Source of the DNA: Gammaproteobacteria bacterium | GTDB lineage: Bacteria > Pseudomonadota > Gammaproteobacteria > UBA12402 | Length of the DNA: 64,000 nt | Direction: 5' to 3' | Assembly (NCBI GenBank): GCA_018812595.1 | Contig: JAHJDF010000002.1 | Location: 1,790 to 65,789, forward strand | Shown here: piece after piece, positions 20,625-56,984 of the stretch | Layout of the letters: every line of letters begins with the position of its first letter | Numbering within the stretch: the first letter of the stretch is position 1 | Program-made: the position numbers and the translations under genes | Notes under the pieces: generated by a model | Seen by the model: the letters and a program-made list of their open reading frames with translations, nothing else | Databases searched by the model: none | Told to the model about the DNA's origin: nothing

Positions 20625-22259
20625 GTGCAGTTATTGCGAGGAAACGAGTTAATACATTTATTTCTTCGTTTCTTTTGCATTGCTATGATGCCGCTTCATT
20701 TTTTCACAGGACTTCCCTCGATGTTTGAATCGCTTAAAAAAGACCGTTATTTGCGGTGGTTTTTAATCACCTTAATTACCGTTTTTATTGTCAAAAGTAT
20801 TCTTGCTAGCGTGTTTCCATTAACAGGAGACGAAGCATATTACGTGATCTGGGGGAAATTCTTTCAGTGGGGATATTACGATCACACGCCGTTTATTGGA
20901 TGGTTGTTGTGGCCTTTTGTCCATCTCAGTACCGCTAACTTTATCGTGCGCTTGCCGACGCTTCTTGTGACAACAGCAATTGGTATCGGACTGTATGGAT
21001 TTTTGCGATCGTATGATGCTGAAAAAGCATCGCTGATTGCTATTTTGTATTTGATTTCTCCTATCAATTTATGCGGTGTGTTGATCACGACAGACATTCC
21101 TTTGATCTTGTTTTCATTTTTTTCAGGGCTTTTTTTGGTGCTCGCGGTGCGAGAGCAGGATCATCTTGGCTATTATCTTTTATCCGGTTTGTGCTTAGGG
21201 TTGGCCTTTTTCTCGAAGTATTTTGCGGTGTTACTTGCGCTGGCGTATCTCTTTTATTTTCTGTTTTCTGAGAAATCGAAAAAAAGAACGCTTGGCTTTG
21301 TGCTTTTGTTTTTAGCTGTTTTGCCTTTTGGGTTAGAAAATCTTTATTGGAACTACAGCCACGATTGGGCAAATATTTTATTTAATGTCTTTAATAGGAA
21401 TCGAGGTATTACGTTTGAATGGCATACCGTCGCGCTTTATTTGTTAGTTGTTTTCTATATTGCAACGCCGCCCATTTTTTATTACTGCTGTAAGCATTGG
21501 AAAAAATTGTTTCGGTCGAGCGCTTTATTTGAATTTAACGTTTTAATCGTGTCTGTATTTGTGCCTTTAGTGTTCTTTTTAGGGTTGAGCACGATGAAGT
21601 CCATTGGGTTGCATTGGCCATTGTAGTTTGTGCCGTTTTTATATGCCCTTTTATTGATCTATTTATCGCGCATTGAGCTGGTGCGATGTATTCGCTTTAT
21701 GTTTGGGTTTTCTTTTGTGCATCTTGTGTTAATTGCGGTTGTTTTGTTGTTTCCTATCCAGATACTTCAGGCGCTCCACTTAAAAGGGCCTCGATATGCA
21801 GATTGGATTTTTGCATTGAAACATCGCGAAATAAGTCGTGTGCTGCATCAAGAAAATATGCAGTTTGTTCTTTCAAGTAATAGCTATGCGAAAGCAGATT
21901 TGATGTACATCGACAGCGGCAAGTACAGTCCTTCATTTGGGGTTGGTACAGCTCATGGCCGTGAAGGGGATTTTCTTACTAATTTTGCCGCAATGCAGGG
22001 AAAGAGCTTTTTAATCTTGCTGAATAGGCGGCCAGACCTTAGTGATTACTTGCCGTATTTCCATGTGACGCGTGTGCAGCCGTGGCGCTTTGATGGGGCA
22101 GTGTTTTATTTAGTGATGGGCTATCACTTTAATTATCTTGCTTATCGTCATGGTGTTCTCAAGGCAATCAATCAGCGTTATTGGACTGTGCCTTCGTTTT
22201 TACCGCATACCAAAAGTTTCTTTTTTAAGAAATATTGGTCCGCTGCGTTACCTCATTAA
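20625..22259 (+). pseudogene. ArnT/PMT-family (GT39/GT83-like) membrane glycosyltransferase apparently interrupted by an in-frame TAG at 21624-21626 (333-aa and 209-aa ORFs in the same frame)
   Basis: N-terminal part has LTGDEAYY motif and multiple TM helices; second ORF continues in the same frame (offset 1005 nt); combined length ~543 aa matches intact family members. Confidence 0.5.
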
Positions 22260-23195
22260 AAACGTAGAGACGCGATGAATAAGCGTCTTCGGATTAAGCA
22301 CATTCCTTTTAAGTATCTTTGCCAAGATATTTGGGTAATCCGTAATAATTCCATCGACACCAAAGTTCCTCATGAGCTGCATGTCCGCTGGATCGTTCAC
22401 AGTCCATGTGATGACCTTCAGGCCATTTTTATGCGCTTCTTGTATGCGGTCTGCGGTTAATTCTTGAAAATTAGGTCCCCAAATGTTCCCTCCTAACTGG
22501 GCAATCATGTAAGGAATCGAATTTTTATATTGCTTTAATAATTGATTATCAGACCAGAGTCCTGCAATGACAGGATTAGCTGAAGTCATGTCGTTTGAAA
22601 TGCGTGGGTCTGTTAGATAGGCCGTTTCGATTTTTGTTTGGGCCAGTTGGATGTTTTTTAAGACACGCCAATCAAAAGCTTGTATTTCGGTTCGATCTTC
22701 AATTTTTTCTTCTCTAATAATGTTGACGATTTCTTTAGCTAGATCTTCAGGTGTATGGGTGCGTTCTGGGTGTGAAGGGTCAGTTTTAACTTCAATTTGG
22801 AAACGTACCGGGTATTGGGCGTATTTTTTGAGGTATTGGATGACTTGTTTTAATGAGGAAATGTGTGTTCCGTCTATCGCTACCTGTTGTGAAAACTGGT
22901 GTGCGTAGTACGTATTAGGGTTTATGCGGCCAACGTCGTATTGCTGTAATTGTTCAAACGTTAAATCTTTAATACAAACCGCTTCATTGGCATCGATCCA
23001 TCGTCCATTTTGATCGCGTGTAATAAGCGGGTTCAGGGTTAAATGATGTGTGACTACAACAACATGATCTTTCGTCATGTTGACGTCCATATCAACGGCA
23101 TCGCTCTTTAGGTCGATAGCTTTTTTGAAGGCTGGAAGGGTGTTTTCAGGAGCCAGGCCTCGAGCTCCACGGTGGGCATAAATTTTTATTTTCAT
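22248..23195 (-). CDS. Glycerophosphodiester phosphodiesterase (GDPD family)
   Basis: N-terminus KIYAHRGARGLAPENTLPAFKKAI and ...HHLTLNPL typical of GlpQ/UgpQ. Confidence 0.85.
   Translation of the reverse strand: MKIKIYAHRGARGLAPENTLPAFKKAIDLKSDAVDMDVNMTKDHVVVVTHHLTLNPLITRDQNGRWIDANEAVCIKDLTFEQLQQYDVGRINPNTYYAHQFSQQVAIDGTHISSLKQVIQYLKKYAQYPVRFQIEVKTDPSHPERTHTPEDLAKEIVNIIREEKIEDRTEIQAFDWRVLKNIQLAQTKIETAYLTDPRISNDMTSANPVIAGLWSDNQLLKQYKNSIPYMIAQLGGNIWGPNFQELTADRIQEAHKNGLKVITWTVNDPADMQLMRNFGVDGIITDYPNILAKILKRNVLNPKTLIHRVSTFLMR
22260..22291. repeat. Degenerate family-A REP copy (AACGTAGAGACGCGATGAATAAGCGTCTTCGG)
   Basis: Left arm intact, right arm decayed; overlaps convergent gene ends. Confidence 0.6.
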
Positions 23196-23439
23196 GAAAT
23201 TAGAGCGCTTCTTTTATGAATATTATTTTTTTGAAAAAGATATCAATGAACTTGAGTCGAGCAAAATAATTTCGAAGATTTTGTATGACTTGTTGACACT
23301 ATCAATTCTGCATACACTGCGCCGCCTTGATAACTTGTGACCATGGTGGAGAGTGGTGAAGTTTTCCTCATCTATATGCTATTTGTGAGCCGTGGAGTGT
23401 GTTTACAAATGGTTCTTCATCGTGATCGATTCTTGATTA

Positions 23440-24138
23440 GTGAGAACAATCATGGTGAGTCCGACAGTTCAAGAGATAGACGCTAAAAGTCCCGGCGATC
23501 GTTTGAAACAGATTCGAAAACTGTTGCGAGTGTCGCGTGCTTATTTTTATCAGAAATATGGTTTGTCTACCGATACTTTAAAAGCATGGGAAAACAATAA
23601 AGCGCCATTAACGGAAAAAGGGCTTGTTCGTTGTATGCAAATGTTCCGTGAAGAGGGTGTCGATGTTTCAAAAGATTGGGTACGTACGGGCGAAGGAATG
23701 GATCCCAAAATTGCCATTGATTTTGGTCGCTATGTGCATGAGTTCACATCGAATTATGATGCTGAAAAAAGTGACGATGCTTTCTTATTAATGCAGGAAA
23801 TAGAATTTTTTAAATCACATGCAGCGAATGCGATCGTTATGTTGGTTCCGGATGAGACTATGTTGCCGTTCTACCAGTCTGGCGCTTATGTAGGAGGTTT
23901 TTTAAAACCAGGATCGCAAGTGCGCGATGCTTTAGATCAAGATTGCATTGTGATTACCAAAGATAAGAAACAGTATTTTCGTCGGTTAAATATAGGAAGC
24001 AGAGACGGGTTGTTTAATCTGACCTCTCTTAATCCACAATGGAAACAGAACCATCTTCCAGTGATTTATGATGTTGAAATTGCACATGTGGCTCCAGTTG
24101 TATGGTACAGGCGTCCAGCCTCTGTCGTTACCCAATAA
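23440..24138 (+). CDS. XRE-family HTH regulator with C-terminal LexA/CI-like (S24-like, possibly non-catalytic) domain
   Basis: N-terminal HTH (LKQIRKLLRVSRAYFYQKYGLSTDTLKAWENNKAPLTEKGL); C-terminal beta-rich region with VPDETMLP in place of the GDSMxP motif. Confidence 0.5.
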   Translation: MRTIMVSPTVQEIDAKSPGDRLKQIRKLLRVSRAYFYQKYGLSTDTLKAWENNKAPLTEKGLVRCMQMFREEGVDVSKDWVRTGEGMDPKIAIDFGRYVHEFTSNYDAEKSDDAFLLMQEIEFFKSHAANAIVMLVPDETMLPFYQSGAYVGGFLKPGSQVRDALDQDCIVITKDKKQYFRRLNIGSRDGLFNLTSLNPQWKQNHLPVIYDVEIAHVAPVVWYRRPASVVTQ

Positions 24139-24316
24139 TTGGTAATAATGTTGATTTTTATCCCTTTTTAGATAAAATCTTTTGCGCTTGCTATGAGTTC
24201 CATGGCAACTGAATTTCTATAAGCTGTTACAAGAAAACTTTTAATTTGCGCGACTAAGTCCTCTGTTTTTCCTCACTTTTTCTTGTTTTAGCATCCTTTT
24301 AAGGAGTTAGACACAT

Positions 24317-24538
24317 ATGTTGATTGTGACAAGGAGCATTGGGGAAGGGGTAATGATCGGCAATGAAATAAAGATCACTTTCTTAAGGATTAGAGGTAAA
24401 AAAATACGGATGGGTATTCAAGCTCCTTCTCAATTTAAAATTACGCAACTTACAGAACAAGTGTCTTTTGATGCTACGAAGCCTTCAGGATGGGAGGTCG
24501 TTGAGTTCCAAGATTTTAACGAATCGGTCGATTCGTAA
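24317..24538 (+). CDS. Divergent CsrA-family RNA-binding protein (73 aa, extended C-terminus)
   Basis: MLIVTRSIGEGVMIGNEIKITFLRIRGKKIRMGIQAP matches the CsrA fold core; the canonical VHREEI segment is replaced by FKITQL, and there is a 15-aa tail. Confidence 0.75.
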   Translation: MLIVTRSIGEGVMIGNEIKITFLRIRGKKIRMGIQAPSQFKITQLTEQVSFDATKPSGWEVVEFQDFNESVDS

Positions 24539-24629
24539 ATCAGATTTTTCTTACGATATTTCTTACAAGTCTTTGAGCTCTTTTGGATTTTCAATTTGCG
24601 GTATGCGCGTAAAGTGCATCCTCGTTAAT

Positions 24630-24696
24630 CGCATAATACCTAGAGCAGGGATGTTTAAAGAATTCAGGAGGAATTAGGTATTATGCGTTTTTTTTT
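24630..24696 (+). terminator. Hairpin (12-bp stem CGCATAATACCT/AGGTATTATGCG, 34-nt loop with AGGGA and AGGAGGA) followed by T9
   Basis: Direct reading downstream of the csrA-like gene. Confidence 0.55.
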
Positions 24697-24845
24697 GCCT
24701 TTCGTAGATTCCATCTTTTTTCTTAATTTTTGCTTATGAAGTTTTCTATTGTCATTTGCACAGAAAGTAAGAACTCAAGTTCCCATCGTCTCCATTAAAG
24801 TGTCTTGTCGTTATCCTAAGGGATAAGAATTGATATTTTTCTTTT

Positions 24846-24908
24846 CTAGATTCCCGCTTTCGCGGGAATGACGGTAAAGAGTAGATTCCCGCTTTCGCGA
24901 GGATGATT
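24846..24908. repeat. Two family-B inverse-half elements (AGATTCCCGCTTTCGCGGGAATGACGG; AGATTCCCGCTTTCGCGAGGATGATT)
   Basis: Direct reading. Confidence 0.8.
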
Positions 24909-24916
24909 ATAAATTT

Positions 24917-26260
24917 TTATTGGTATTTCGAATGACAGTGCGTTTCTTTGGCTATCAATACCGCAAGCAAACCCAATACAAAAGCAATCGGCATGAGCCA
25001 CAGAGCTCTGTGATAGTCGGCTAGAGAATGCAACGGAATGCCGTATAGCATTTGCTTATTCCAATGTAGGTCTAACAGCCATCCAAAGAGAGATGACGGG
25101 ATGGTGCCGCCTGCCATGATCAAAGTAGATCCAATGCTTAAACTGGCTCCTACGATATTAGATGGATTGCTTTCCGCAATGGCGGGATAACCGATGACCT
25201 GTGCGCTCGTAATGAACCCAAGGCCTAAGAAGAGCATTAATAAGCTCAACAAATTAAGGTGAGGAACGTACATGATCAGCAACATCAATACGATCGAAAT
25301 GATGGCTCCGAGGATCATAGGAGGTTTCCTTGCTCCCCATTTATCTGAGATGTACCCGAGAACAGGTGATCCAATCATTGCTCCGATCAAAAGCATACTG
25401 GTGACGTAAGTTGCATTTTCTAAAGATAGGGTTTGTGCTTGTTGTAGATATCTCACACCAAAGACGCCGCCTAGAATGAAAATCGGTAAATTCAATAAAC
25501 AGGTATAAAGACCAAACAACCAGTTCTGCGGATTAGAAACCGCTTTCTTAATACTGAATACCAAAAAGCTCAAACTCATCACTTCTTCTTTGGACATCTC
25601 ATGTTTGTATCCTTCTGGATAATCTTGAATCGTGAGCCACATAACAAAAATAAGGAATAATCCAAATAGAGCGTCTAATTGCAATGCATGACGCCATCCA
25701 ACGGCGCCTTCAAGCAAAGCTAATGGGGTTTGCCCAACCACTCCTCCGAGAAATCCCATGGTAATAATGGTTCCGCTTACGAGCGCCATATGAGAGGGCG
25801 TAAACCAGCGAGCGGCTAGACGCAAGCCAACAAGCAGAGCGAATGCGCCGCCTATGCCAATCAATAATCGGCTTAAAAAAGCAACTGTGATCGAGTTTGA
25901 GAAGGAGAAGAGAAAGGTGCCGATCACGACCAACATCATGGTGCTTAAGATGATTTTTTTTGTGGAAAAACGATCCAACATTAATCCCGCTGGAAATAAG
26001 AAAATGACATTTCCCCAGAAGTAAGCAGAGAAGAGGGTGCCAAATTTTGTAGAGGTTAATTGCAGGGTGGTCATTAGATCTTGACCAATGGCATTGAACA
26101 TCAGCATTTGAATAAAAATATAAAAAAAGAATAGCGATGCAGATAAGCACACAATCCATCCTTTCATTGAATTTTGTCCCATAGAATTTTGAGAAAGAGT
26201 ATTCATAAAGTTTCCTTCTGTTGTATGAGATGAAAAAGGGAAGAGACGGAACGCAATCAT
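24917..26260 (-). CDS. MFS transporter (likely start at internal Met ~26206)
   Basis: 12 predicted TM segments; MFS-like loop motifs. Confidence 0.75.
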   Translation of the reverse strand: MIAFRLFPFSSHTTEGNFMNTLSQNSMGQNSMKGWIVCLSASLFFFYIFIQMLMFNAIGQDLMTTLQLTSTKFGTLFSAYFWGNVIFLFPAGLMLDRFSTKKIILSTMMLVVIGTFLFSFSNSITVAFLSRLLIGIGGAFALLVGLRLAARWFTPSHMALVSGTIITMGFLGGVVGQTPLALLEGAVGWRHALQLDALFGLFLIFVMWLTIQDYPEGYKHEMSKEEVMSLSFLVFSIKKAVSNPQNWLFGLYTCLLNLPIFILGGVFGVRYLQQAQTLSLENATYVTSMLLIGAMIGSPVLGYISDKWGARKPPMILGAIISIVLMLLIMYVPHLNLLSLLMLFLGLGFITSAQVIGYPAIAESNPSNIVGASLSIGSTLIMAGGTIPSSLFGWLLDLHWNKQMLYGIPLHSLADYHRALWLMPIAFVLGLLAVLIAKETHCHSKYQ

Positions 26261-35616: not shown

Positions 35617-38600
35617 ATGCATTCCTTTCCTTTTGAACCCACCGAGGTTTTGACAAGTCGTTTGGAGGATGTTGCACAAATAATTGATAGCAATGCTCAG
35701 TTATTAGTTGAGGGCCAGCAGCAAGTAACAACGAACCCTGTTGTTCGATCAACCCTGAGATGGATCTTTGACGTTTTAAGAGCAGATCCATTTGAAATTG
35801 CTTCTGTCTCAGAGTGTTTTAATGCCGTGTTAAAGCAACCGAAGGGCATTGATGTTTTGGATTACGCGTTGGGTGTTTTTCAAAACTCATTGGAGTCATC
35901 GGAGATTCAAAAATTACTGAATTATTTTTCCCCTATTTTGAAACGTTACAAGATTCACATTGAGCCAGAGAATCTCATTGCTGTATCGAAAGATTGCAAA
36001 GTGCCTGAAGGGAAGTTGGATCTTTCCGCGCGAGTCGATGAGGTTGAATCATCTCATCAAGACGATATGGTTCAGCGTCAAGGAGCACCTACAGTAAGTG
36101 ATTTCCTCTCAGGACATCCAGATCACCCATTAGCTCTTCAGATCAAAGCCTGTGCCTCTCAAGTAGATGGATACGACTTAAGTAGCTTGGCGTTTACAGC
36201 GATTGAGTCTTTGTATGAACGCTTTGGGCAAAAGGATCACGTGAGAATTGATAATCTTCAATGGCATATTAAAGAAGATCCTAACTTTGATGTGACGCTT
36301 ATTTTTAGCACCGGAATTTTTTCTGAAAAAGGGGAGTGTCTTGCAGACCATTCTTTAGTGTATTCGCTCACTCAAAAAGAAGATGGGGTCTATGGCAATT
36401 TCGAACAGTTCATCTTGAGACCGTATAACAACGCATTTCATCGGATTTGTGTTGCAAGTGCGTTATTTAGCGATCATCTCTTTCCTTTAGAAGCGCCTGA
36501 AAGTTTGTTTATGAATAACTTAGAGGACCGTGTGGTTCTGGATAGGTATTGGGAATTATTTTCCTCGTCGATGAAAAAAAGCATTCAAGAACAAATAGGT
36601 TTTTTTGAAACATTAATAACAGATGCAGAGATTTCGTTACATGCCCTTGCTTTATTAGCTGTTTTACAAGTATTGCAACAGCAAGGAGTAAAGATCGGTG
36701 GAAAGATAGATAGCGAGAGAGGTTGGCTAGAAGATCTTTTGGAATACCGCGAAGGGACTCATTTTTTAGATTATGTTTTAGGCAAATTTTATAAAAAAGC
36801 TTTTGCCAATCCGGAGAAGCAACAATCGAAAAAGATGATGCACGTATTGATCCATCATTTTTTACCGATGATGTTAGAGAGAAAGATCGTGTATCCGCAT
36901 CTATGGTATGTAGGACATACCGAGCAAGGGAATCGAATTGTTGTTGAACCGCTTACAAACTCTTTTAAGGAGTTGAATGAAAAATATCGTGATCCAGAAC
37001 AACGAGCAGAGATTGTAGCGTTCGTTGAAACACGTTATGCGACGGATCGGGACCGAGGGATTTCTCTATTGGACGCAGTCTTGCAATCATCTCCTGGTCA
37101 TGAGTTGGCTCTTTTCTTGAAAGCTTTGTTGTCACAAGGAACTAGTTTTGGAGATTATGGCGTTGTTAATGGTTCTGCTGGTCCATTGATTCAATGGTTT
37201 TTAGAAGCAGGGAAAAGTGTGAGTAAGAATAATTTTGATCTTTCGCTTGATGAGATTACTGGCGGTTATCGGGTTTCTATCCGACACGGTTATTGCAATT
37301 TGAGCGATAAGCTCGATCCGGAAAAACAAAAAATAAGTGAATTATCGTTTTTTAATAGCTCATTAACTTTTGAGTTAACCTGGAATGAAAAGCAGGAGAA
37401 AGCGGAGTTACGGTTTATTGGTTTGGGTTATACACCTTATGACAACGAAGCTGCTCCTGTGTTCGCGAGACAACAATGCTTTGGTGGAATATCAAAGCAA
37501 CCGCAGATGGTTTGTGCAAATACCCCAATGCCAAAAGATCCTGAGCAATATCGTCCTTATTTGCTGCGTTTTCTTTTTTCTGAAAATCCAGAAGCTGTTA
37601 GTCATCGATGGTCCGATTATTTTCAACGCTATATGCATTTGTCATTATCCGTCAGACCTGTTTTCTTGGATGTTATTGATCAGAGCAATTTGTCATCGGA
37701 AGAAAAAGAGACGATTTTTAAAAAAATATTCGAAAGACAAATTAAAGAGTTCTTCAAACACGATGCGAAGTTTGAACTTTTTCAAACCTTTTGTTTTGGA
37801 TTAACCCCTCATTTACAAGTTCTCTTTTATCGCTACTTGAAATGTTATTTTGCTGAGACGCATAACAATGCAACAGATGAAAACAGGCGTAAAACATGGT
37901 TGAAGAATTTAGAGAAACAACAATTGAATGGAGATGCGTTGCCGGTCTTGGAGCAAGATTTTATGTTTTGGGAAGGTCTGAAAAGTTTTATTTCTGAAGC
38001 CCCCATATCTGATGACGAATCGCTTCACATTTCTTTCCAATCGGGAAAAACATTTGCTCTATCAGAAAATGCTCATTCTTGGTTGTTGGATGAGAATGGA
38101 AACTTTCGTGAACCGCCAACAGATCGTGCGGGTACCCATTGCGTTTTCACCGTTTGTTCAGATATTCCTTATGACCCTAATCTCAATCTTGATGAATACA
38201 AAGGACCTGTATACGAAGTGGTTTTTTGGCCGGACATGCCGTCCTTTGCCATGCAGCGACTTGCGCAGCGCGTGTTTGGCGAGAAAATATTGCCGCGAGC
38301 TGCCGTGGCGCGTCTCGATTATCGTGGGAAGATAATTGCTATAGAGATTCGCGAACATGTGAAAGGACGATTGTTATCGAATGTCTTAAAAGAAAGCCCT
38401 GATGACCTTAATAGAATCAATTCTGTATCTTTTACACGTAATTTTTTATTTTTTCTCTTGTTGTTGATTTCAGATTTGCACGGGCGAAATGCTGTGTTGC
38501 AAGCATCCGATAATGATTCCTTTGATTTTAGAGTTTTTGATGCTCGTGCATTCAAAGAACAAGAGGATATGAAGAAGCCTGAACTTATTAATATGTTTTT

Positions 38601-41600
38601 CTTATTAGATTTAATGCGTATTCCTATTTTAGATCCAGATGTCTTCCATCAATTCTTAACATTAGATTTTGATATGGTCTTGAAAGCGTGGATTGAAGAG
38701 TGCCGGGTTGAAAATAGCAGGTTGTCGATGCTGTTTAATGGCTATATAGGACAACTCTATGAGTCAGGGAAAGAGAAATTTAACACAACTCGTCCTGTTA
38801 ACCCTTTAGAAACACATAAGTTAAATTCCAGCCTCTTGTGTATTCCTATTGGAGGGTATGTTCAAAGCTTGTTTTTTCGAATGAAGAAATTGAGAGAAGA
38901 ATTAGAAGTGTGGACGAATGAATCACCGTTTGTGATCTTGCGCCATGTATTGTCTCTTTTATCTAAGTTTTATAAACCGTGTTTTAAAAAAGGAGCTGTT
39001 CAAGAACGTTTCGATCACTTGCTGCAGATGGCACAGAATGGATTGTCCTCGTCTACTTATTCGAGCCGTTCATTAATAGCCTCAGAGCCGACTGCAACAA
39101 CTACCCAATACAATTTTTTGTTATATGGGGAAGGTTTGCGTGGTATCACAAAAGCTTTGGGATATAGACGATCTCCGTTTCAATTGTCTAAAGAAGAAGT
39201 AGAGGAGATCGCAAATGAGCGTGATGATTTCTTTTCTCCCACACAGGCCAAAGGCTTATTAGAGCAATTAATCGCTTTTTACGAGCAAGAAGATCACTCG
39301 ACTATAGTTCAGCTTCACGGCGATTTATTGCGCAAAAAACCGTTCACACTTAGATTCGAACAACTTTTTCCTGAGGAGAAATATTTATGTTTAGAAAGGC
39401 TTTATAAACATATTGATGAAATAAAGATATTGCTTACACGAGAGCAGCAACGAGCAATTTTAGATATTTTATTGGTTACCCCTTTCTCTTCACTGTCGCT
39501 ACATCGTTATGCCCAGGTGCTCAAAGATCGCGATATTTTGAAATTAATGAATGGGCCTATTTATCATCTCCGTACCTTGAATCTTAATGAGACGTTGCTC
39601 ACGGATTCAGCTATGGAGCATCTGAGCCGTGCAACCGATTTGCCTTTAGAGCATTTGATTTTGAGTAATATGCCAAACCTACGTTTGATGACTCCCAACT
39701 TGAAATTGAATTTTCCGAATTTGCGAATCCTCGATTTAAGAGGAAGCGGGAATATTCGTAGACTTCCTTTTGTTTTACCGAATTTAAAGGAGTTGTACTT
39801 AGATAATAATTGGGGAATTGAATCTTTCTTACGAAATCTTATCGATCGACAATCTGAACAGAAAATTGTGATTCATTTAAGCGGTGAAGCAAAATTCGCA
39901 ATTGATCTCATTCATGCTTTTTTTAGGGTTTCGAATGTTCATTTTGAAATCGATGATCCAAATCTGCAGAGCTCTGTTTTGTATGATTCGATGAAAACTG
40001 GAGTTCCTTTTTTTAGTCTTGGAGATTATTTAAAAAGAGTTATCGATCAATTGCATTTTCTACCGCGGTTCGAGCAGTTTGTTATTTCTCGTCGTTTAGA
40101 ACCAAACATTTATATGGAGCTGTCTTTAATCATTCAACCCATTATAAAAGAGATGAAACGCATCAAAATTATAGAAGGGTGGTGTGACAGTGAATTGATC
40201 TTATTTTTATTGCGTTGTTTTCCCTCTGTGAATCAAATCGATCTTGAAATGGACGAGGAAAAATTTTCAATCCGATTAGACGAATGGCGTCAAAGTATTC
40301 GTTTTGTTGCAATGACTGATCATTACGTGGCTATTCGTTTTAATTCACCTGAAACGGAAGAGGTATTGTACAAGCTAGGGTTTTTAGATCGTGATAGTCA
40401 TCAAGTGGAGGATTTTCCAAATTGTTTCTTTTTTCACAAAGAAACAATCCAGGCATTGGTTGGGGACTCTATCAACAAAAAGAAAGTGGAACGTGAAGAC
40501 TTCAGTTCTTTTTTATCGATAAAAGACGAGAGAATTACTGCTCTTTCTATTGATATGTGTCCAGATGCTTGGGGTATGTTTGTGGAGATAGCGTGTGATT
40601 ATGCTCGTAAACATCCAGAATGCCTTTGGTGCATTCATTTGAATGACGCAATGTTGAGTGATCTTTTCTTTTTGGGACAAATCAATTTTCCACAAGAAGG
40701 TAGTTCGTTAGTCGTTTCCTCTCCGTTGGCTCAAAAGATTGTGGATCTGTATTGGGAACGTTGGAGCGGGCCTGATGATAGAAGTTCATTGTTAAACATT
40801 TTGCTGTCGCTTCGCGTGTCGGAAGAGTACGAAAAACAATTTTGTGATCAAGTTTTTGAGATCCTGTCTGCTGATAGTCTACGGTCTCCACAAGAGAAAT
40901 ATTGTTTTTTAAAAAAGCTTGTGACCGTATATTCGGTTCCTGTTCTAACGGAATTGGTTGGTCTTTATGAGGGGCTTCAGTCACACCAAACTATGTCGTC
41001 TGAAGCACAGAAGATTGCGGCGATTTATCAAGAGCATAGTGCTCATATAGATAGGCTTTGGCCTAAATTGTGGCTTGAGATTCAACGGTTGGCTGTACAA
41101 CATGCAGACGTACAGGATTACGCATCTGCGTGTCTTTTGTTCGATGTTGTTTTTGCTCGTCATGAGGAACGGATTGATCAATGTTCTTGTAAGGATTGGG
41201 AGCATTATTACCAATCTTTAAAAGAAGAAGACCCCAACAGTGATTTATCTGACTTGATTCATCGTCGTGTTCAATTGTTGGTGCAGCAAAAAAGAAAAAT
41301 GGTTTTGGGTGAACGTGCTTTATTCAAACGATTACTGAAAGAGAATCCTCAAAATCAGAATCTTAGAAATGTTTTATTGTTGTATGGCGATGAACATTTC
41401 TATTTTGTGAATGAATTAAAAAAGGCTGTTCAATGGGTTGTGGACTGCGTTGGTGGTCCAGAGTGGTTGAATCATTTGTGTTATGCGCCGTGTAACCAAG
41501 ATGGGCGTATGAATAAGCGACAGACAATTATTGCGGCAATTTATCTACAGGAACAATTCGAACGAAGAGTTGATGAGAGTTTAATAGGCATCTCTGTTCT

Positions 41601-52555: not shown

Positions 52556-54172
52556 ATGGGAAAAAAAAGAAAAAGAAACGTAGAAGAAGTTGTGATGCCA
52601 AAAGTTCTACACAAACAGAAATTTGTTGTTTTGTCAGAAAAAGAAAAAGAGGCTCTTGATCGGCTGAAGGAAAGATATTTCTTTTCCAAATTTCAACTGA
52701 ATGATTTCAATCAGGAGGAAATTCTTCACGTTATTCGTAGTTTGCAGTCTGCTCGTTTTAAAAGTGCTCCGCAGGCACGCAAAGTAACCTACTATCGGAA
52801 GGCGTTGTTTCAGTATCTTACTGATAATCGGTTTTCTGAATTTGACGAGATTTTCAACGATGCATTCAGAACATTTTCCACTTTCCTGAATGCATATAAA
52901 TACCGATTTCGACGTGGTCCACGAAAACCTGTTTATTTGTCAGAAGAGGATAAAGAGGTGCTTGAGCAGCTCAAACAAGGCCGGCTTTTTCCCCCAGAAT
53001 CTTTGGATGTAGTTCTTTCTGGTGAAGAGGAAATTATTAACACGGTGATTGAGTTAGAAATGAACCGTTTTCAAGGGAAAAGAGCTTCATATGTACATGA
53101 AATAAATGCTTATAGAAAACTAATGTTTGAATCTCTTGGTGGCCGAGCAACTGAATATTTTGAATTTACGGAGTTCTGTCGTCTCGTTAATAATCGAAAA
53201 AATAATGGCCAACAACTCTCTGTTTATTTGTCCGACAAAGAAAAAGCATATCTTCAAAAGCTTAAGAAACGTTGCTCTTCAGATGAATGTTTTCACCTTA
53301 GCTTTCTAAGTCGACAAACAGTTATTGAGGCTGTTTTAAAATTAGAATGTCTGCATTTTCAAGGCGAGAGCACTATCAGCACTGTTGCCATACAAAAATT
53401 TCGAGGCGAGGTAGTTGATTATCTCGTACAAGGTGAAGTTGAGTATGAAGCGTTCAAAAATTTTTCCATGTCAGTAAGTAAAGAAAAATTGAGGATAAAA
53501 GAGTTATGGAAAAAGATGTCAGAAAAAAGAAGATTGGACAAAAAAGAAACACCTCCTCGCAAACGAGTGCGTTATGAGATAGGCCATTATGAAATTAGAG
53601 AACTTCTCGCAGAACAAGAGGAGGTTAAAGGAGAGGAATATAAACAGGAGGATTGTTTATTACATCACCCAAAAGCGTTTATTTGTTGGCTCGATACTTT
53701 TTTAGTTAATTTAGAAGATTCTGTGAATTCATTGTTGCAGCAAGAGGCCGTTCAATTTTTTAATTTTGTTGATGAAGGGTTCTTTCATTCTGTGAGTACC
53801 TTTTTCCCCTATACATATAATGAGGATGAAGAAAAAGAGACATCATTGTTTTCAGTCATCACCAATGTTGATCAAGTGTTGCAACAGTTGCGTTTTATGA
53901 TGAAAAGTAGTTGTAGCCATTTTGAAATGGATGGCTTTTCGAAGCTTGAAAAGAGTTTTAGTGATTTAAGGCTGGGGTGGGGATATCAAAATAAACTGTC
54001 CGATATTTCCTCTGCTTTTTCTTCAGAAGAGCGGGTGAAACAAATACGTGATCTATTCGATAAATCCAGTTCGTTAAGGCGGCGCATAGATACGAAGAAA
54101 GAACAGATAATGACGATCACCGAGAGTCAAATGCGCTGTAACGATGAAGAAAATCTAAGACTGACAGTGTAG
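52556..54172 (+). CDS. Hypothetical 538-aa protein, paralog A of tandem pair; three internal ~95-aa repeats plus conserved C-terminal module
   Basis: Internal repeats each containing (V/I)YLS-x2-(E/D)K-x2-L-x2-LK...; C-terminal 170 aa >85% identical to paralog B incl. acidic NEDEEKE block. Confidence 0.7.
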   Translation: MGKKRKRNVEEVVMPKVLHKQKFVVLSEKEKEALDRLKERYFFSKFQLNDFNQEEILHVIRSLQSARFKSAPQARKVTYYRKALFQYLTDNRFSEFDEIFNDAFRTFSTFLNAYKYRFRRGPRKPVYLSEEDKEVLEQLKQGRLFPPESLDVVLSGEEEIINTVIELEMNRFQGKRASYVHEINAYRKLMFESLGGRATEYFEFTEFCRLVNNRKNNGQQLSVYLSDKEKAYLQKLKKRCSSDECFHLSFLSRQTVIEAVLKLECLHFQGESTISTVAIQKFRGEVVDYLVQGEVEYEAFKNFSMSVSKEKLRIKELWKKMSEKRRLDKKETPPRKRVRYEIGHYEIRELLAEQEEVKGEEYKQEDCLLHHPKAFICWLDTFLVNLEDSVNSLLQQEAVQFFNFVDEGFFHSVSTFFPYTYNEDEEKETSLFSVITNVDQVLQQLRFMMKSSCSHFEMDGFSKLEKSFSDLRLGWGYQNKLSDISSAFSSEERVKQIRDLFDKSSSLRRRIDTKKEQIMTITESQMRCNDEENLRLTV

Positions 54173-54212
54173 CAACTGTATCGTCATGCTTAGCTTCGGC
54201 GGGGGTATCCAG
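54168..54212. repeat. Degenerate family-B half element (GTAGCAACTGTATCGTCATGCTTAGCTTCGGCGGGGGTATCCAG) that supplies the TAG stop codon of paralog A
   Basis: Shares the 20-nt leader GTAGCAACTGTATCGTCATG with copies at 50398, 59945 and 60566. Confidence 0.7.
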
Positions 54213-54301
54213 TCATTCATTTTCCGGCTGTCATGTTTCAGTATTTGACTTCAAAACCTGTGTCATCATGAGAAAAACAAAAAAAATAATGAGGATGAGT
54301 T

Positions 54302-55546
54302 ATGGGAAAAGAAATAATAAGAACAGTAGAAGAACAGCAACTTGTTTATTTGTCAGAAGAAGATAAAAAGGTCCTTGAGACGCTTAAACAAGACTGGCGC
54401 TTCTCTTTAAAGTTCAATCAAAAGGAAATTGTTGACACTGTGGCTGAGTTGGAAATTGACTGCTTTAAAGAGAAAAAAAATCCATATGTACGAGATGTAT
54501 ATGCTTATAGAAAATTAATGTTTCAGTTTCTCTTTGATGATCTATCAACTGAATCTTTTGAATTTAAGGTATTCCGTCGTCTCATTAGCAAGCGAAAAAG
54601 TAACAGGCGGCCAATCTTTGTTTGTTTGTCCAACGAAGAAAAAGATTTTCTTCAAGGGCTTATGAAACATTGTTCTTTAAATGAAAATTTCCCATTCGGG
54701 GTTTTAATGCAAAAAGAAATTATTGAGGCAGTTGCAGGGCTCGAGTGTCTGCATTTTCAAGGCGCAAGGACCATAAATACCTGTGCTAGACGAAAGTTTC
54801 GATGGGAGGTGGCTAGCTATCTCCTACAAAGCGCACCTAAGGGGCAAGAGATCGAAAGGTTCTCTCGTTTATTAAGCAGGAAAAAGCCGCAGATGTTAAA
54901 AAGGATGCAGGAAACATGGCTCATAAATAATAAAGGATATCGTGGTCAGCAGTGTTATGAGGCGTTTGTTTTTAAACCAGTTCAAAAAGAGGTTAAAGAG
55001 GTTCAACAAGAGGAATGTAGACGTTTAATAAATAACTTCCCGAATTTTCTTTATTTGCTCGATATTTTTTTAGTTGATTTAGAAAATTCTGTGAATTCAT
55101 TGTTGCAGCAAGAGGCTGTTCAATTTTTTCATTTTGTTGATGACGGGCTCTTTCATTCTGTGAGTACCTTTTTTCCCCACACATATAATGAGGATGAAGA
55201 AAAAGAGACATCATTGTTTTCAGTCATCACCAATGTTGATCAAGTGTTGCAACAGTTGAATTTTATGATGAAAAGTAGTTGTAGCCATTTTGAAATGGAT
55301 GGTTTTTCGGAGCTTGAAAAGAGTTTTAGTGATTTAAGGAAACAGGGGCTGATGTATCAAAATAAACTGTCCGATATTTTTTCTGCTTTTCCTTCAGAAG
55401 AGCTGGTGAAAAAAATACGTGATCTGTTCGATAAATCCAGTTTGTTAAGGTGGCATATAGATACGAAGAAAAAACAGGTCATGATGATCACAGAGAGTCA
55501 AATGCGCTGTAACGATGAAGAAAATCAGTTAAGACTGATGGCGTAG
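54302..55546 (+). CDS. Hypothetical 414-aa protein, paralog B of tandem pair; two internal repeats plus conserved C-terminal module
   Basis: Same 5' leader (CATGAGAAAAACAAAAAAAATAATGAGGATGAGTTATGGG) and C-terminal module as paralog A. Confidence 0.7.
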   Translation: MGKEIIRTVEEQQLVYLSEEDKKVLETLKQDWRFSLKFNQKEIVDTVAELEIDCFKEKKNPYVRDVYAYRKLMFQFLFDDLSTESFEFKVFRRLISKRKSNRRPIFVCLSNEEKDFLQGLMKHCSLNENFPFGVLMQKEIIEAVAGLECLHFQGARTINTCARRKFRWEVASYLLQSAPKGQEIERFSRLLSRKKPQMLKRMQETWLINNKGYRGQQCYEAFVFKPVQKEVKEVQQEECRRLINNFPNFLYLLDIFLVDLENSVNSLLQQEAVQFFHFVDDGLFHSVSTFFPHTYNEDEEKETSLFSVITNVDQVLQQLNFMMKSSCSHFEMDGFSELEKSFSDLRKQGLMYQNKLSDIFSAFPSEELVKKIRDLFDKSSLLRWHIDTKKKQVMMITESQMRCNDEENQLRLMA

Positions 55547-55565
55547 CGATGCGATCTGTCATGTT

Positions 55566-56984
55566 TCAGCATTTGTGCTGTGGCGAGTTTGTGTAAAGAG
55601 GTGATGGTTTTTTGTTAGTGTTTTCGATGTTTCTTATTAAGTCTGTCAAAAATGATTTTTGCTTCCATTCCAGTATTTTTTCTTCTGCCCACTCCTGCAA
55701 TGCGTTGTCTTTGCCGCTTAGACAGAACAGAACTAGATCTTTGAGAAAGTCCATATGTGCTTTTTTTGTCTCCTCTCTATCAAACAAGGGGTTGCCAAAT
55801 AAGGAGCTATGCTCGATGCAGAATAAACAGTCGCTTATATATATATTTGTTATGTTTTGCTGTTTATTCGATAGATGTGTACACAAAACAGCACGGGCTA
55901 GGTTTTTGTGATCTGGATTTTTGCTTGCGATGCAATGTTGCATAATATCTCTGCTATACGATTGTATGTTGTAATCTTTGCCATCCTCGCATAGCAATAG
56001 GACTTGATGTGTTGCTTGAAAAGAAGGGAAATCAGGATTCGAAGTAATTATGTATTTTAGAAAGATAGATTGAATCTTTGAATCCTGTGGCTGCAAGCAT
56101 ATTGCTTGATAGAGAATGCTTTCGAGTTCATTTATATCTTCTTTTTTTAGTTCGTGTGGAGAAACATAACGATTTATCTCTTCAATAAAAGAGGGCTCTA
56201 GGTCGGATAGCTTTATTTCTCGATAGATCTCTTCATTTTGATGTAGGGATAAAAACATAAAAAGTTTGAAAAAGTTGAATTTCACCCCGTGCCTTATTTC
56301 GCCGTATGGATTTCTTTCTTGAATACATCGTTCCATTACGTTTTTAACGATTTCTACATTCTTCTTTTGTATGAGATCAAGCAGAATCGATAGGGCTGTT
56401 GATTGCCATTTCTTTTCTGATTGCTCATACCTTTCCGGATGCTGTTTTCGTTTCTCTTCCCATAATTTTTTGGGATCTATAAGTTGTAGAATCGTATCTA
56501 TAGCAAAATCTTTTAACTTCGGATCATCAGAGTTCGCATTGTTCAAAATGATTTCTTGTGCAAATGCTGATTCTTTGCCCCATCCGGCTACGTATGTGAG
56601 AAGAATTTGGAATGCCAATTTTAGTTGTATTATTTCAGACGCTCCTTTGGCTCCATATTCGTTGATTGTTTTTTCAGCCCAGTTTTGAGCCACCTTATTT
56701 TCAGATTTTGCGCATGCAATCATCGCATCGATCGGAAACTGATCTAGACGTTCTTGTTGTTTTCGGTCGTAGGGATTGCGTCTGTTCCTACAGTGGTAAA
56801 AGAAATCCTTTATGGCCTCTTGAGCACTTGCCTCTTTAGAGGCTATACATTTAACAACCACATCGGGTGCGTCAAGTTGGCCGGTTGTTACGAGGGTCCT
56901 CATCTCTTCTTGAAAAGCTTTATCATTGGATGTTGCTAATGTAACCAGTTTGTTGATTTTTTTGGAGAGGGAGAATAGATACAT
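55566..56984 (-). CDS. Hypothetical 472-aa all-helical protein (convergent with paralog B)
   Basis: Long ORF with ATG start; no recognisable catalytic motifs; helical-repeat-like composition. Confidence 0.6.
   Translation of the reverse strand: MYLFSLSKKINKLVTLATSNDKAFQEEMRTLVTTGQLDAPDVVVKCIASKEASAQEAIKDFFYHCRNRRNPYDRKQQERLDQFPIDAMIACAKSENKVAQNWAEKTINEYGAKGASEIIQLKLAFQILLTYVAGWGKESAFAQEIILNNANSDDPKLKDFAIDTILQLIDPKKLWEEKRKQHPERYEQSEKKWQSTALSILLDLIQKKNVEIVKNVMERCIQERNPYGEIRHGVKFNFFKLFMFLSLHQNEEIYREIKLSDLEPSFIEEINRYVSPHELKKEDINELESILYQAICLQPQDSKIQSIFLKYIITSNPDFPSFQATHQVLLLCEDGKDYNIQSYSRDIMQHCIASKNPDHKNLARAVLCTHLSNKQQNITNIYISDCLFCIEHSSLFGNPLFDREETKKAHMDFLKDLVLFCLSGKDNALQEWAEEKILEWKQKSFLTDLIRNIENTNKKPSPLYTNSPQHKC

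Follow-up and report, generated by a model that had tools for sequence, protein, structure and literature searches.

An LvrR-family repressor gene beside a divergent csrA-like gene, probably derived from a Legionellales mobile-element cassette

A repressor gene and a csrA-like gene in the same orientation

The subject of this study is a pair of adjacent genes in a 64,000-nucleotide stretch of DNA (the window) from a gammaproteobacterium (GenBank assembly GCA_018812595.1, contig JAHJDF010000002.1, positions 1,790 to 65,789 of the forward strand). The first gene (23452–24138) encodes an LvrR-family repressor of 228 amino acids (aa), recognised from its open reading frame (ORF), Pfam and PHROG matches, a family alignment and an AlphaFold model. 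The second (24317–24538) encodes a divergent putative CsrA paralog of 73 aa, recognised from Pfam, NCBIfam and alignments. Both lie on the plus strand, and the ORF coordinates leave exactly 178 bp between them (24139–24316), as stated in an earlier reading of the window made without database searches (the sequence-only reading). The pair is probably an orphaned, reduced and chromosomally fixed derivative of a Legionellales mobile-element cassette that comprised an LvrR-family repressor and a CsrA paralog of the CsrT/LvrC type.

To our knowledge, Legionella and its relatives have more CsrA paralogs than any other bacteria. The paralogs carried on conjugative elements are thought to tune transfer and host traits. 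LvrC proteins are CsrT-class CsrA paralogs encoded in lvrRABC, which lies upstream of Legionella type IV secretion system (T4SS) clusters, at the head of those of integrative conjugative elements (ICEs) and plasmids (PMC3864950); CsrT-class paralogs were the subject of Abbott et al. (2015), as summarised in PMC7366521 and PMC5655016.

The window repressor is homologous to proteins encoded on Legionella plasmids (24.6–25.2% identity, 92–97% coverage, E values of 4e-14 to 3e-12), and on all nine Legionella plasmids with such a homolog a csrA gene is found 1.9–2.9 kb away on the opposite strand. On the one plasmid that was inspected for gene order (NZ_CP011106; 25% identity, 97% coverage, E = 4e-14), the repressor gene is followed divergently by three hypothetical genes, csrA, traT, traA, traL, traE, traK and traB, with csrA at the head of a tra operon of the F type. 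This layout matches the published position of lvrRABC upstream of a T4SS, and it is the layout that suggests the name lvrR for the plasmid gene.

The sequence-only reading had described the pair as an lvrR/csrT-like module. The likeness extends to a repressor with helix-turn-helix (HTH) and S24-like domains, distantly homologous over its full length to one beside csrA on Legionella conjugative plasmids, to a small CsrA-family gene nearby and to a host in the Legionellales, an affiliation of the source genome suggested by a neighbouring gene for an LssY_C-domain protein and by the distribution of the repressor family. It does not extend to lvrA and lvrB, which are absent from the window, or to the arrangement, since the plasmid genes are divergent and about 2 kb apart whereas those of the window are co-directional; therefore the pair is not itself an lvrRABC cassette. 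Also unlike lvrRABC, the pair has no T4SS, integrase or att site in the window. In agreement with the earlier statement that no conjugative element is adjacent, families of integrases, relaxases, T4SS or other conjugation proteins and replication proteins gave no match among the ORFs of at least 150 aa examined in the 64 kb.

A phage-type repressor without the catalytic dyad

Two starts are available for the repressor gene. The GTG at 23440 gives the 232 aa of the sequence-only reading, and that ORF exists; the ATG at 23452, used in public gene calls on identical contigs, is preferred and gives 228 aa. The score against Pfam Peptidase_S24 (22.9 bits) fell just under the cut-off of 23.3 and the match to HTH_3 was weak, and the architecture of the repressor was therefore tested independently. 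The PHROG family phrog_4 (transcriptional repressor) matched residues 14–222 (E = 4e-9). AlphaFold2, run on a 36-sequence alignment of the family, gave a model with a mean predicted local distance difference test score (pLDDT) of 87.6. Its N-terminal domain superposes on the DNA-binding domains of P22 C2, 434 Cro and ImmR with a template-modelling (TM) score of about 0.84, its C-terminal domain superposes on those of lambda CI and LexA (TM 0.61–0.64), and the linker (residues 93–103) is disordered. The model shows a predicted Cro/C2-type HTH joined to a lambda-CI/LexA-like C-terminal beta domain, which is the architecture of phage CI and bears out the HTH and LexA/CI-like domains proposed from the letters. 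The same two-domain architecture is found in lambda CI, P22 C2, LexA and ImmR of ICEBs1.

The catalytic Ser/Lys residues are S119/K156 in LexA and S149/K192 in lambda CI. Unlike these proteins, the window repressor has Thr and Arg at the two positions: it reads VPDETMLPF where S24 peptidases have GDSMxP, with Thr136 in DETM, and Arg177 within FRRL occupies the place of the general-base Lys. The linker contains no Ala-Gly cleavage site, neither AG nor CG being present.

A word-indexed search with the repressor query alone returned one relative, and a profile of four sequences was needed to reach the family. The profile search detected more than 160 relatives of approximately 205–230 aa, and the family profile matched the window repressor with E values of about 1e-80 to 5e-102. 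All family members with a genus- or order-level name belong to Legionella, Tatlockia or Aquicella. A genome scan with the 4-sequence subfamily alignment, which returned 12 loci, the window's own species not among them, added Coxiellaceae and metagenome-assembled genomes (MAGs) named "Legionellales bacterium".

In the 36-sequence alignment the family motif at GDSMxP is D-x-x-M-x-P, with Met137 and Pro139 invariant. The Ser position is occupied by T, D, G, A or S, and the Lys position by the invariant Arg177. DETM is therefore a trait of the family and not a local loss; the earlier observation of this motif was right, but a loss specific to this gene is not supported. Judged by these residues, the whole family is predicted to consist of pseudo-peptidases, which would therefore not be inactivated by RecA-stimulated self-cleavage. 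The only role left to the CI-like domain is presumably to form oligomers or to bind a partner.

Plasmid and chromosomal relatives of the repressor

The kinship with ICE regulatory cassettes proposed in the sequence-only reading is backed by the plasmid repressor/csrA layout, whereas the nearest relatives of the window repressor (42–46% identity) occur in a module of another kind. In this module an SDR gene and the repressor gene point in one direction, and genes for an autoinducer-binding-like protein (AIB), an MFS protein and a CMD protein follow on the opposite strand. The AIB protein is 166–175 aa long, has no HTH or other DNA-binding domain, and is the partner of the repressor in 14 of the 15 loci of this closest subfamily, on plasmids as well as on chromosomes. 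Examples of the module are seen in loci L010, L014 (4274–7496) and L016–L028. It looks like an undescribed small-molecule signalling cassette, to judge from its predicted products.

A csrA gene follows the module in only three of the 15 loci (L014, L019 and L021). L014 is a ParAB/Rep3 plasmid, in which genes for SSB, CsrA and Arc lead into traA-traC; L019 is a chromosomal contig with IcmQ and insertion sequence elements nearby; and in L021 the repressor gene is followed by the oppositely oriented AIB, MFS and CMD genes and then by csrA in the orientation of the repressor gene.

Other members of the family vary further. A bare divergent repressor/csrA pair with a spacer of 245 bp was found on a 178-kb contig (L039, 5505–6651), with no T4SS gene within 6 kb and a CsrA of 83 aa that keeps Arg44; orphan repressor/csrA pairs are therefore not unique to the window. 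In L040 (6001–7296) the gene of a family member is followed 367 bp downstream by one for a 97-aa Hfq paralog, and an RRM_1 protein is encoded nearby. The Hfq paralog thus adds to CsrA another type of RNA-binding regulator found beside members of the repressor family. On a plasmid of Aquicella lusitana the gene of the homolog diverges from repA and from a tra operon of the F type, without csrA, and the closest relatives P0003 and P0242 lie in ordinary chromosomal contexts, likewise without csrA. The repressor family is therefore associated recurrently, but not obligatorily, with genes of small RNA-binding regulators and with conjugation modules. Both this diversity of contexts and the pseudo-peptidase nature predicted for the whole family are newly visible features of LvrR-type repressors.

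A CsrA core without the RNA-binding arginine

The Pfam CsrA profile (PF02599) matched the csrA-like product with 55 bits (gathering score 27; E = 7.7e-15), the match being confined to residues 1–42 of a profile of 53 positions. These residues (beta1 to beta4) align without gaps to the CsrA/RsmE structures of E. coli, Yersinia and Pseudomonas (E values of 5e-9 to 1e-7), and thus the core is shared with canonical CsrA, RsmA and RsmE (PDB 1y00, 2bti, 2jpp). Leu2, Arg6 and the Gly33/Ala36-Pro37 turn are kept in it, while Arg7 is replaced by Ser and Leu4 by Val. Unlike canonical CsrA, the protein lacks His43-Arg44 and Glu46, and no alpha-helix is predicted for it. The VHREEI segment is gone: in the HMMER and MAFFT alignments either Gln occupies position 44 or a gap of two residues removes His43-Arg44. 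The sequence-only reading was correct about the conserved beta core and the replaced VHREEI. It had given the tail as 15 aa; compared with E. coli CsrA the protein has 12 additional residues, and it ends in an acidic tail of 26 residues.

Identity to E. coli CsrA was 31% over the full length and 43% over the approximately 42 alignable residues, and that to element-borne CsrA proteins was 36–48% over the same approximately 42 residues. The protein scored below the equivalog cut-offs of both NCBIfam models, with 52.2 against 73 bits for NF002469 and 47.9 against 70.1 for TIGR00202. These comparisons, which include the alignment check proposed in the sequence-only reading, support its view that the protein is not a canonical CsrA. 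No relative above the 50% clustering level was found among 1.84 billion representatives, and a word-indexed search of a set of 5.8 billion clusters found only the protein itself.

R44 is essential for RNA binding in CsrA (PMC7366521; PMC4471563), and 70 of 71 Legionella CsrA-like proteins keep it, the other one having Lys (PMC4471563). In this respect the window protein is unlike the Legionella paralogs. It is likewise unlike the CsrA/Rsm homologs on plasmids and phages in Pseudomonas, Piscirickettsia and Xanthomonas (PMC7366521), which keep the arginine and reside on recognisable mobile elements. What it has in common with these homologs is a CsrA paralog carried by, or derived from, mobile elements, and the same genera were among the plasmid matches.

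Conservation was assessed in 272 CsrA domains taken from the best 150 library matches and from reference sequences. Arg44 was present in 230 of the 252 domains with a residue at this position and Glu46 in 209 of 241, and most exceptions were truncated first domains of tandem CsrA-CsrA fusions. Among the element-borne CsrA proteins encoded beside the AIB module, position 44 is Leu in L021 (VHLDEV, 3497–3709) and Lys in L014 (VHKEEI, 8067–8246). The highest-scoring relatives of the window protein (P0004–P0066) are natural tandem fusions of two to four CsrA domains, the first of which is often truncated before Arg44. Such fusions would be single-chain pseudo-dimers with one degenerate RNA-binding face.

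In an AlphaFold model, beta2 to beta4 had pLDDT values of 90–95, and residues 45–73 were predicted to be disordered without a helix (pLDDT 50–56); the model is of a monomer and therefore of limited use, as CsrA is an interlocked dimer. The codon usage of the tail (codons 44–73) ranked at the 68th percentile when compared with in-frame 30-codon segments of the genes of this genome, and it exceeded that of each of 5000 out-of-frame segments. A frameshift as the origin of the divergent C-terminus was rejected, as no VHREEI-like peptide was found in any frame. The absence of a VHREEI hidden in another frame, tail codons typical of genes, a strong Shine-Dalgarno (SD) sequence and a terminator-like hairpin belonging to the gene itself all argue against a merely broken gene. 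The BLAST match to a Legionella plasmid CsrA extends into the tail, where KPGQW faces KPSGW. This likeness is a weak hint of CsrT/LvrC-type ancestry.

Expression signals

The region between the GDPD gene and the repressor gene (23196–23451) is presumed to contain the promoter and would also contain the operator of the repressor. An imperfect palindrome with 13-nt arms and a 10-nt spacer is located there (23255–23290). The 178-bp spacer contains no ORF and no predicted terminator. A sigma-70-like match within it (24151–24178) agrees at 9 of 12 positions, which is not above chance.

The SD sequence of the csrA-like gene (AAGGAG, 24301–24306) lies 10 nt before the ATG. A second AAGGAG, 30 nt from the first, covers codons 5–7 (24331–24336). 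The fold of the leader was not significant (z = -1.1). The core-genome CsrA paralog CsrR of Legionella (lpg1593) is repressed by CsrA via GGA in its first codons (PMC4471563), and the csrA-like gene resembles csrR in encoding a divergent CsrA at a chromosomal, non-ICE locus and in an mRNA with GGA motifs at the SD and within the initial codons. By analogy with csrR (PMC4471563), the two AAGGAG motifs would allow a canonical CsrA to repress the csrA-like mRNA. The window protein differs from CsrR, in which the diagnostic Asp2 creates the GGA site BS3 and Arg44 is kept (PMC4471563), by having Leu2 and no Arg44.

An intrinsic-terminator-like hairpin (24629–24697, plus strand) begins approximately 90 nt past the csrA-like stop codon and was recognised by terminator prediction, centroid structure and shuffling. 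It has a 13-bp stem followed by nine U, and at -20 kcal/mol it was significantly stable (z = -2.56; one of 200 shuffled sequences was as stable), while the fold of the whole 3' untranslated region was not significant (z = -0.3). The stem carries two small apical hairpins with the loops GGGA and AGGAG, which resemble the CsrA-binding hairpins of Rsm-type small RNAs; there was no Rfam match to the terminator hairpin, and three GGA in 79 nt are not clearly above chance.

Origin and possible function of the pair

If the pair is derived from a mobile-element cassette, the genes that once separated the repressor gene from csrA would have been deleted and the transfer genes lost, so that the two regulators became neighbours. 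The layout of L021 minus its three middle genes, that is, after one deletion, would give the co-directional layout of the window. The repressor would bind DNA in a dimeric or oligomeric form held together by its CI-like domain and control its own promoter and probably also the downstream csrA-like gene. The CsrA-like protein may still dimerise, and its affinity for GGA-containing RNA may be low or its specificity changed. A modulatory activity, if there is any, is therefore more probable than classical translational repression.

Several points weigh against such an origin. lvrA and lvrB are missing, and the orientation differs from that of the plasmid cassette. The closest repressor relatives have no adjacent csrA at 12 of 15 loci, and the pairing may therefore have arisen secondarily. 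The CsrA-like protein offers only about 42 alignable residues, too few to place it specifically with CsrT/LvrC. The promoter scan was at chance level at the locus, including 23196–23451. A canonical csrA was not demonstrated in this genome, of which the 64-kb window was examined. Finally, the locus is present, with 99.8–100% identity, on nine public contigs, including four NCBI MAGs. At this identity, population variation could not be used to estimate the ratio of nonsynonymous to synonymous substitutions, and purifying selection is not evidenced.

It is unlikely that the csrA-like gene is a non-functional relic of a csrT-type gene that lost the His43-Arg44 codons and the helix and has not yet been disrupted, leaving only the repressor functional. 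Such a relic would account for the loss of Arg44 and Glu46, the most conserved RNA-contact residues, for the predicted disorder of the tail and for the absence of an ortholog in both large searches, and because the copies are near-identical the intact ORF proves nothing. Residues 1–42, however, are still strongly CsrA-like and have not decayed randomly; the codon usage of the tail is typical of the translated genes of the genome, no VHREEI remnant is present in other frames, and the gene retains both a strong SD and a significant terminator hairpin of its own. In addition, the element-borne relatives with Lys or Leu at position 44 hint that this class tolerates change there.

A chance juxtaposition of a stray repressor of the AIB-module family and an independently arrived CsrA paralog, without functional coupling or ancestry in a single cassette, appears quite improbable. 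Members of the repressor family occur together with csrA in three subfamilies and in several layouts, and one relative lies beside an Hfq paralog, which speaks for a genuine link to small RNA-binding regulators. This has to be set against the AIB partner at 14 of 15 closest-subfamily loci compared with csrA at only three, the ordinary contexts of P0003 and P0242, and the failure to find an operator-like repeat common to both intergenic regions of the pair. That the gene is the canonical csrA of the organism or an ortholog of Legionella csrR is very improbable: the core housekeeping neighbourhood, such as csrA and csrR have in Legionella (PMC4471563), and the absence of another csrA from the window would suit it, but the scores below both equivalog cut-offs, the 31% full-length identity to E. 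coli CsrA, the missing Arg44 and the Leu2 in place of Asp2 all contradict it.

With regard to function, it would be a long shot that the Arg44-less protein, instead of regulating RNA, counteracts the Csr system as a dominant-negative "anti-CsrA". It would then have been domesticated out of a mobile-element cassette and be under the control of a CI-like repressor that cannot be cleaved. The retained dimerisation core would allow mixed dimers with canonical CsrA in which a single RNA-binding face is intact, so that two GGA sites could not be bridged. The element-borne relatives with Lys44 and Leu44 (L014 and L021) might work in the same way. If this were true, then together with the Hfq paralog of L040 it would suggest that Legionellales mobile elements more widely tamper with post-transcriptional control in the host.

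Should the pair be the derived cassette favoured here, the pairing of repressor and CsrA can remain after the mobile element is gone and be fixed in the core chromosome, and a CsrA fold with normal codon usage can survive in the absence of an arginine considered indispensable for RNA binding. If active, the protein would offer a natural example in which to study CsrA functions that need no canonical GGA binding, for instance the poisoning of heterodimers or a change of specificity. If inactive, it would give a snapshot of the decay of a regulator after domestication.

Chromosomal surroundings

As the sequence-only reading had noted, the pair lies between a GDPD gene (22248–23195) and an MFS gene (24917–26260), both recognised by Pfam and both on the minus strand. 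On the GDPD side the neighbours are sppA, the gene for the LssY_C-domain protein, dacA and a PMT_2 glycosyltransferase gene, followed by the GDPD gene. On the other side the MFS gene is accompanied by AsmA, mreBCD and YhdP genes. Elsewhere in the window are lptA/C, mlaFEDC, gltX, murA and genes for a CLC channel, AcrB/HlyD, DegP, Nramp, RimO, XseA and Tgt. Most of the examined window ORFs (at least 150 aa) are housekeeping genes, and a minority have no Pfam match. The transfer RNA (tRNA) genes of the window, at 13.9 and 48.3–48.6 kb, have no integrase beside them. The GC content across the pair (0.36–0.41) is slightly below the window mean of 0.42.

Remnants of the related layouts were not detected in the window. 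The adjacent MFS protein has no similarity to the MFS protein of the AIB module at E <= 1, no remnant of an AIB gene was found in the window, and tblastn of the three intervening NZ_CP011106 proteins against the window gave nothing better than E = 0.5. PADLOC found no defence-system match in the window. A search of the window with Rfam gave tRNAs alone at gathering score and nothing credible near the locus at E <= 5, an RsmY/Z-like RNA being absent. A synteny search of metagenomes with the adjacent MFS protein was uninformative, as none of its nine homologs (41–47% identity) was accompanied by GDPD, AsmA or the pair.

The repeats that the sequence-only reading had placed after the pair as "family B" are present at 24847–24913 and are not specific to the locus. 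They are two copies of a 20-nt palindrome resembling repetitive extragenic palindromic (REP) sequences, ATTCCCGCTTTCGCGGGAAT, of which the window contains 14 intergenic copies with at most three mismatches (0 expected), at 2055, 2088, 7620, 8711, 11077, 24850, 24885, 28211, 28608, 28669, 45587, 50414, 59963 and 60583. The copy number at 24847–24913 differs between the window and contig L003.

The proposal that the pair controls "effector-like" genes found no support, as nothing links the pair to them. The genes meant may be those at 35617–42396, 52556–56984 and 61900–63357, which comprise an ORF of 2259 aa, three of 414–538 aa and two of 199–284 aa, all without a Pfam match at E <= 0.001.

The PMT_2 glycosyltransferase gene (20625–22259) contains an in-frame TAG (21624–21626) that splits its 512 aa into ORFs of 333 and 209 aa. 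The TAG is common to the window and contig L004, and contigs L001, L002 and L005 have TCG (Ser) at this codon. It is a nonsense polymorphism segregating in the population.

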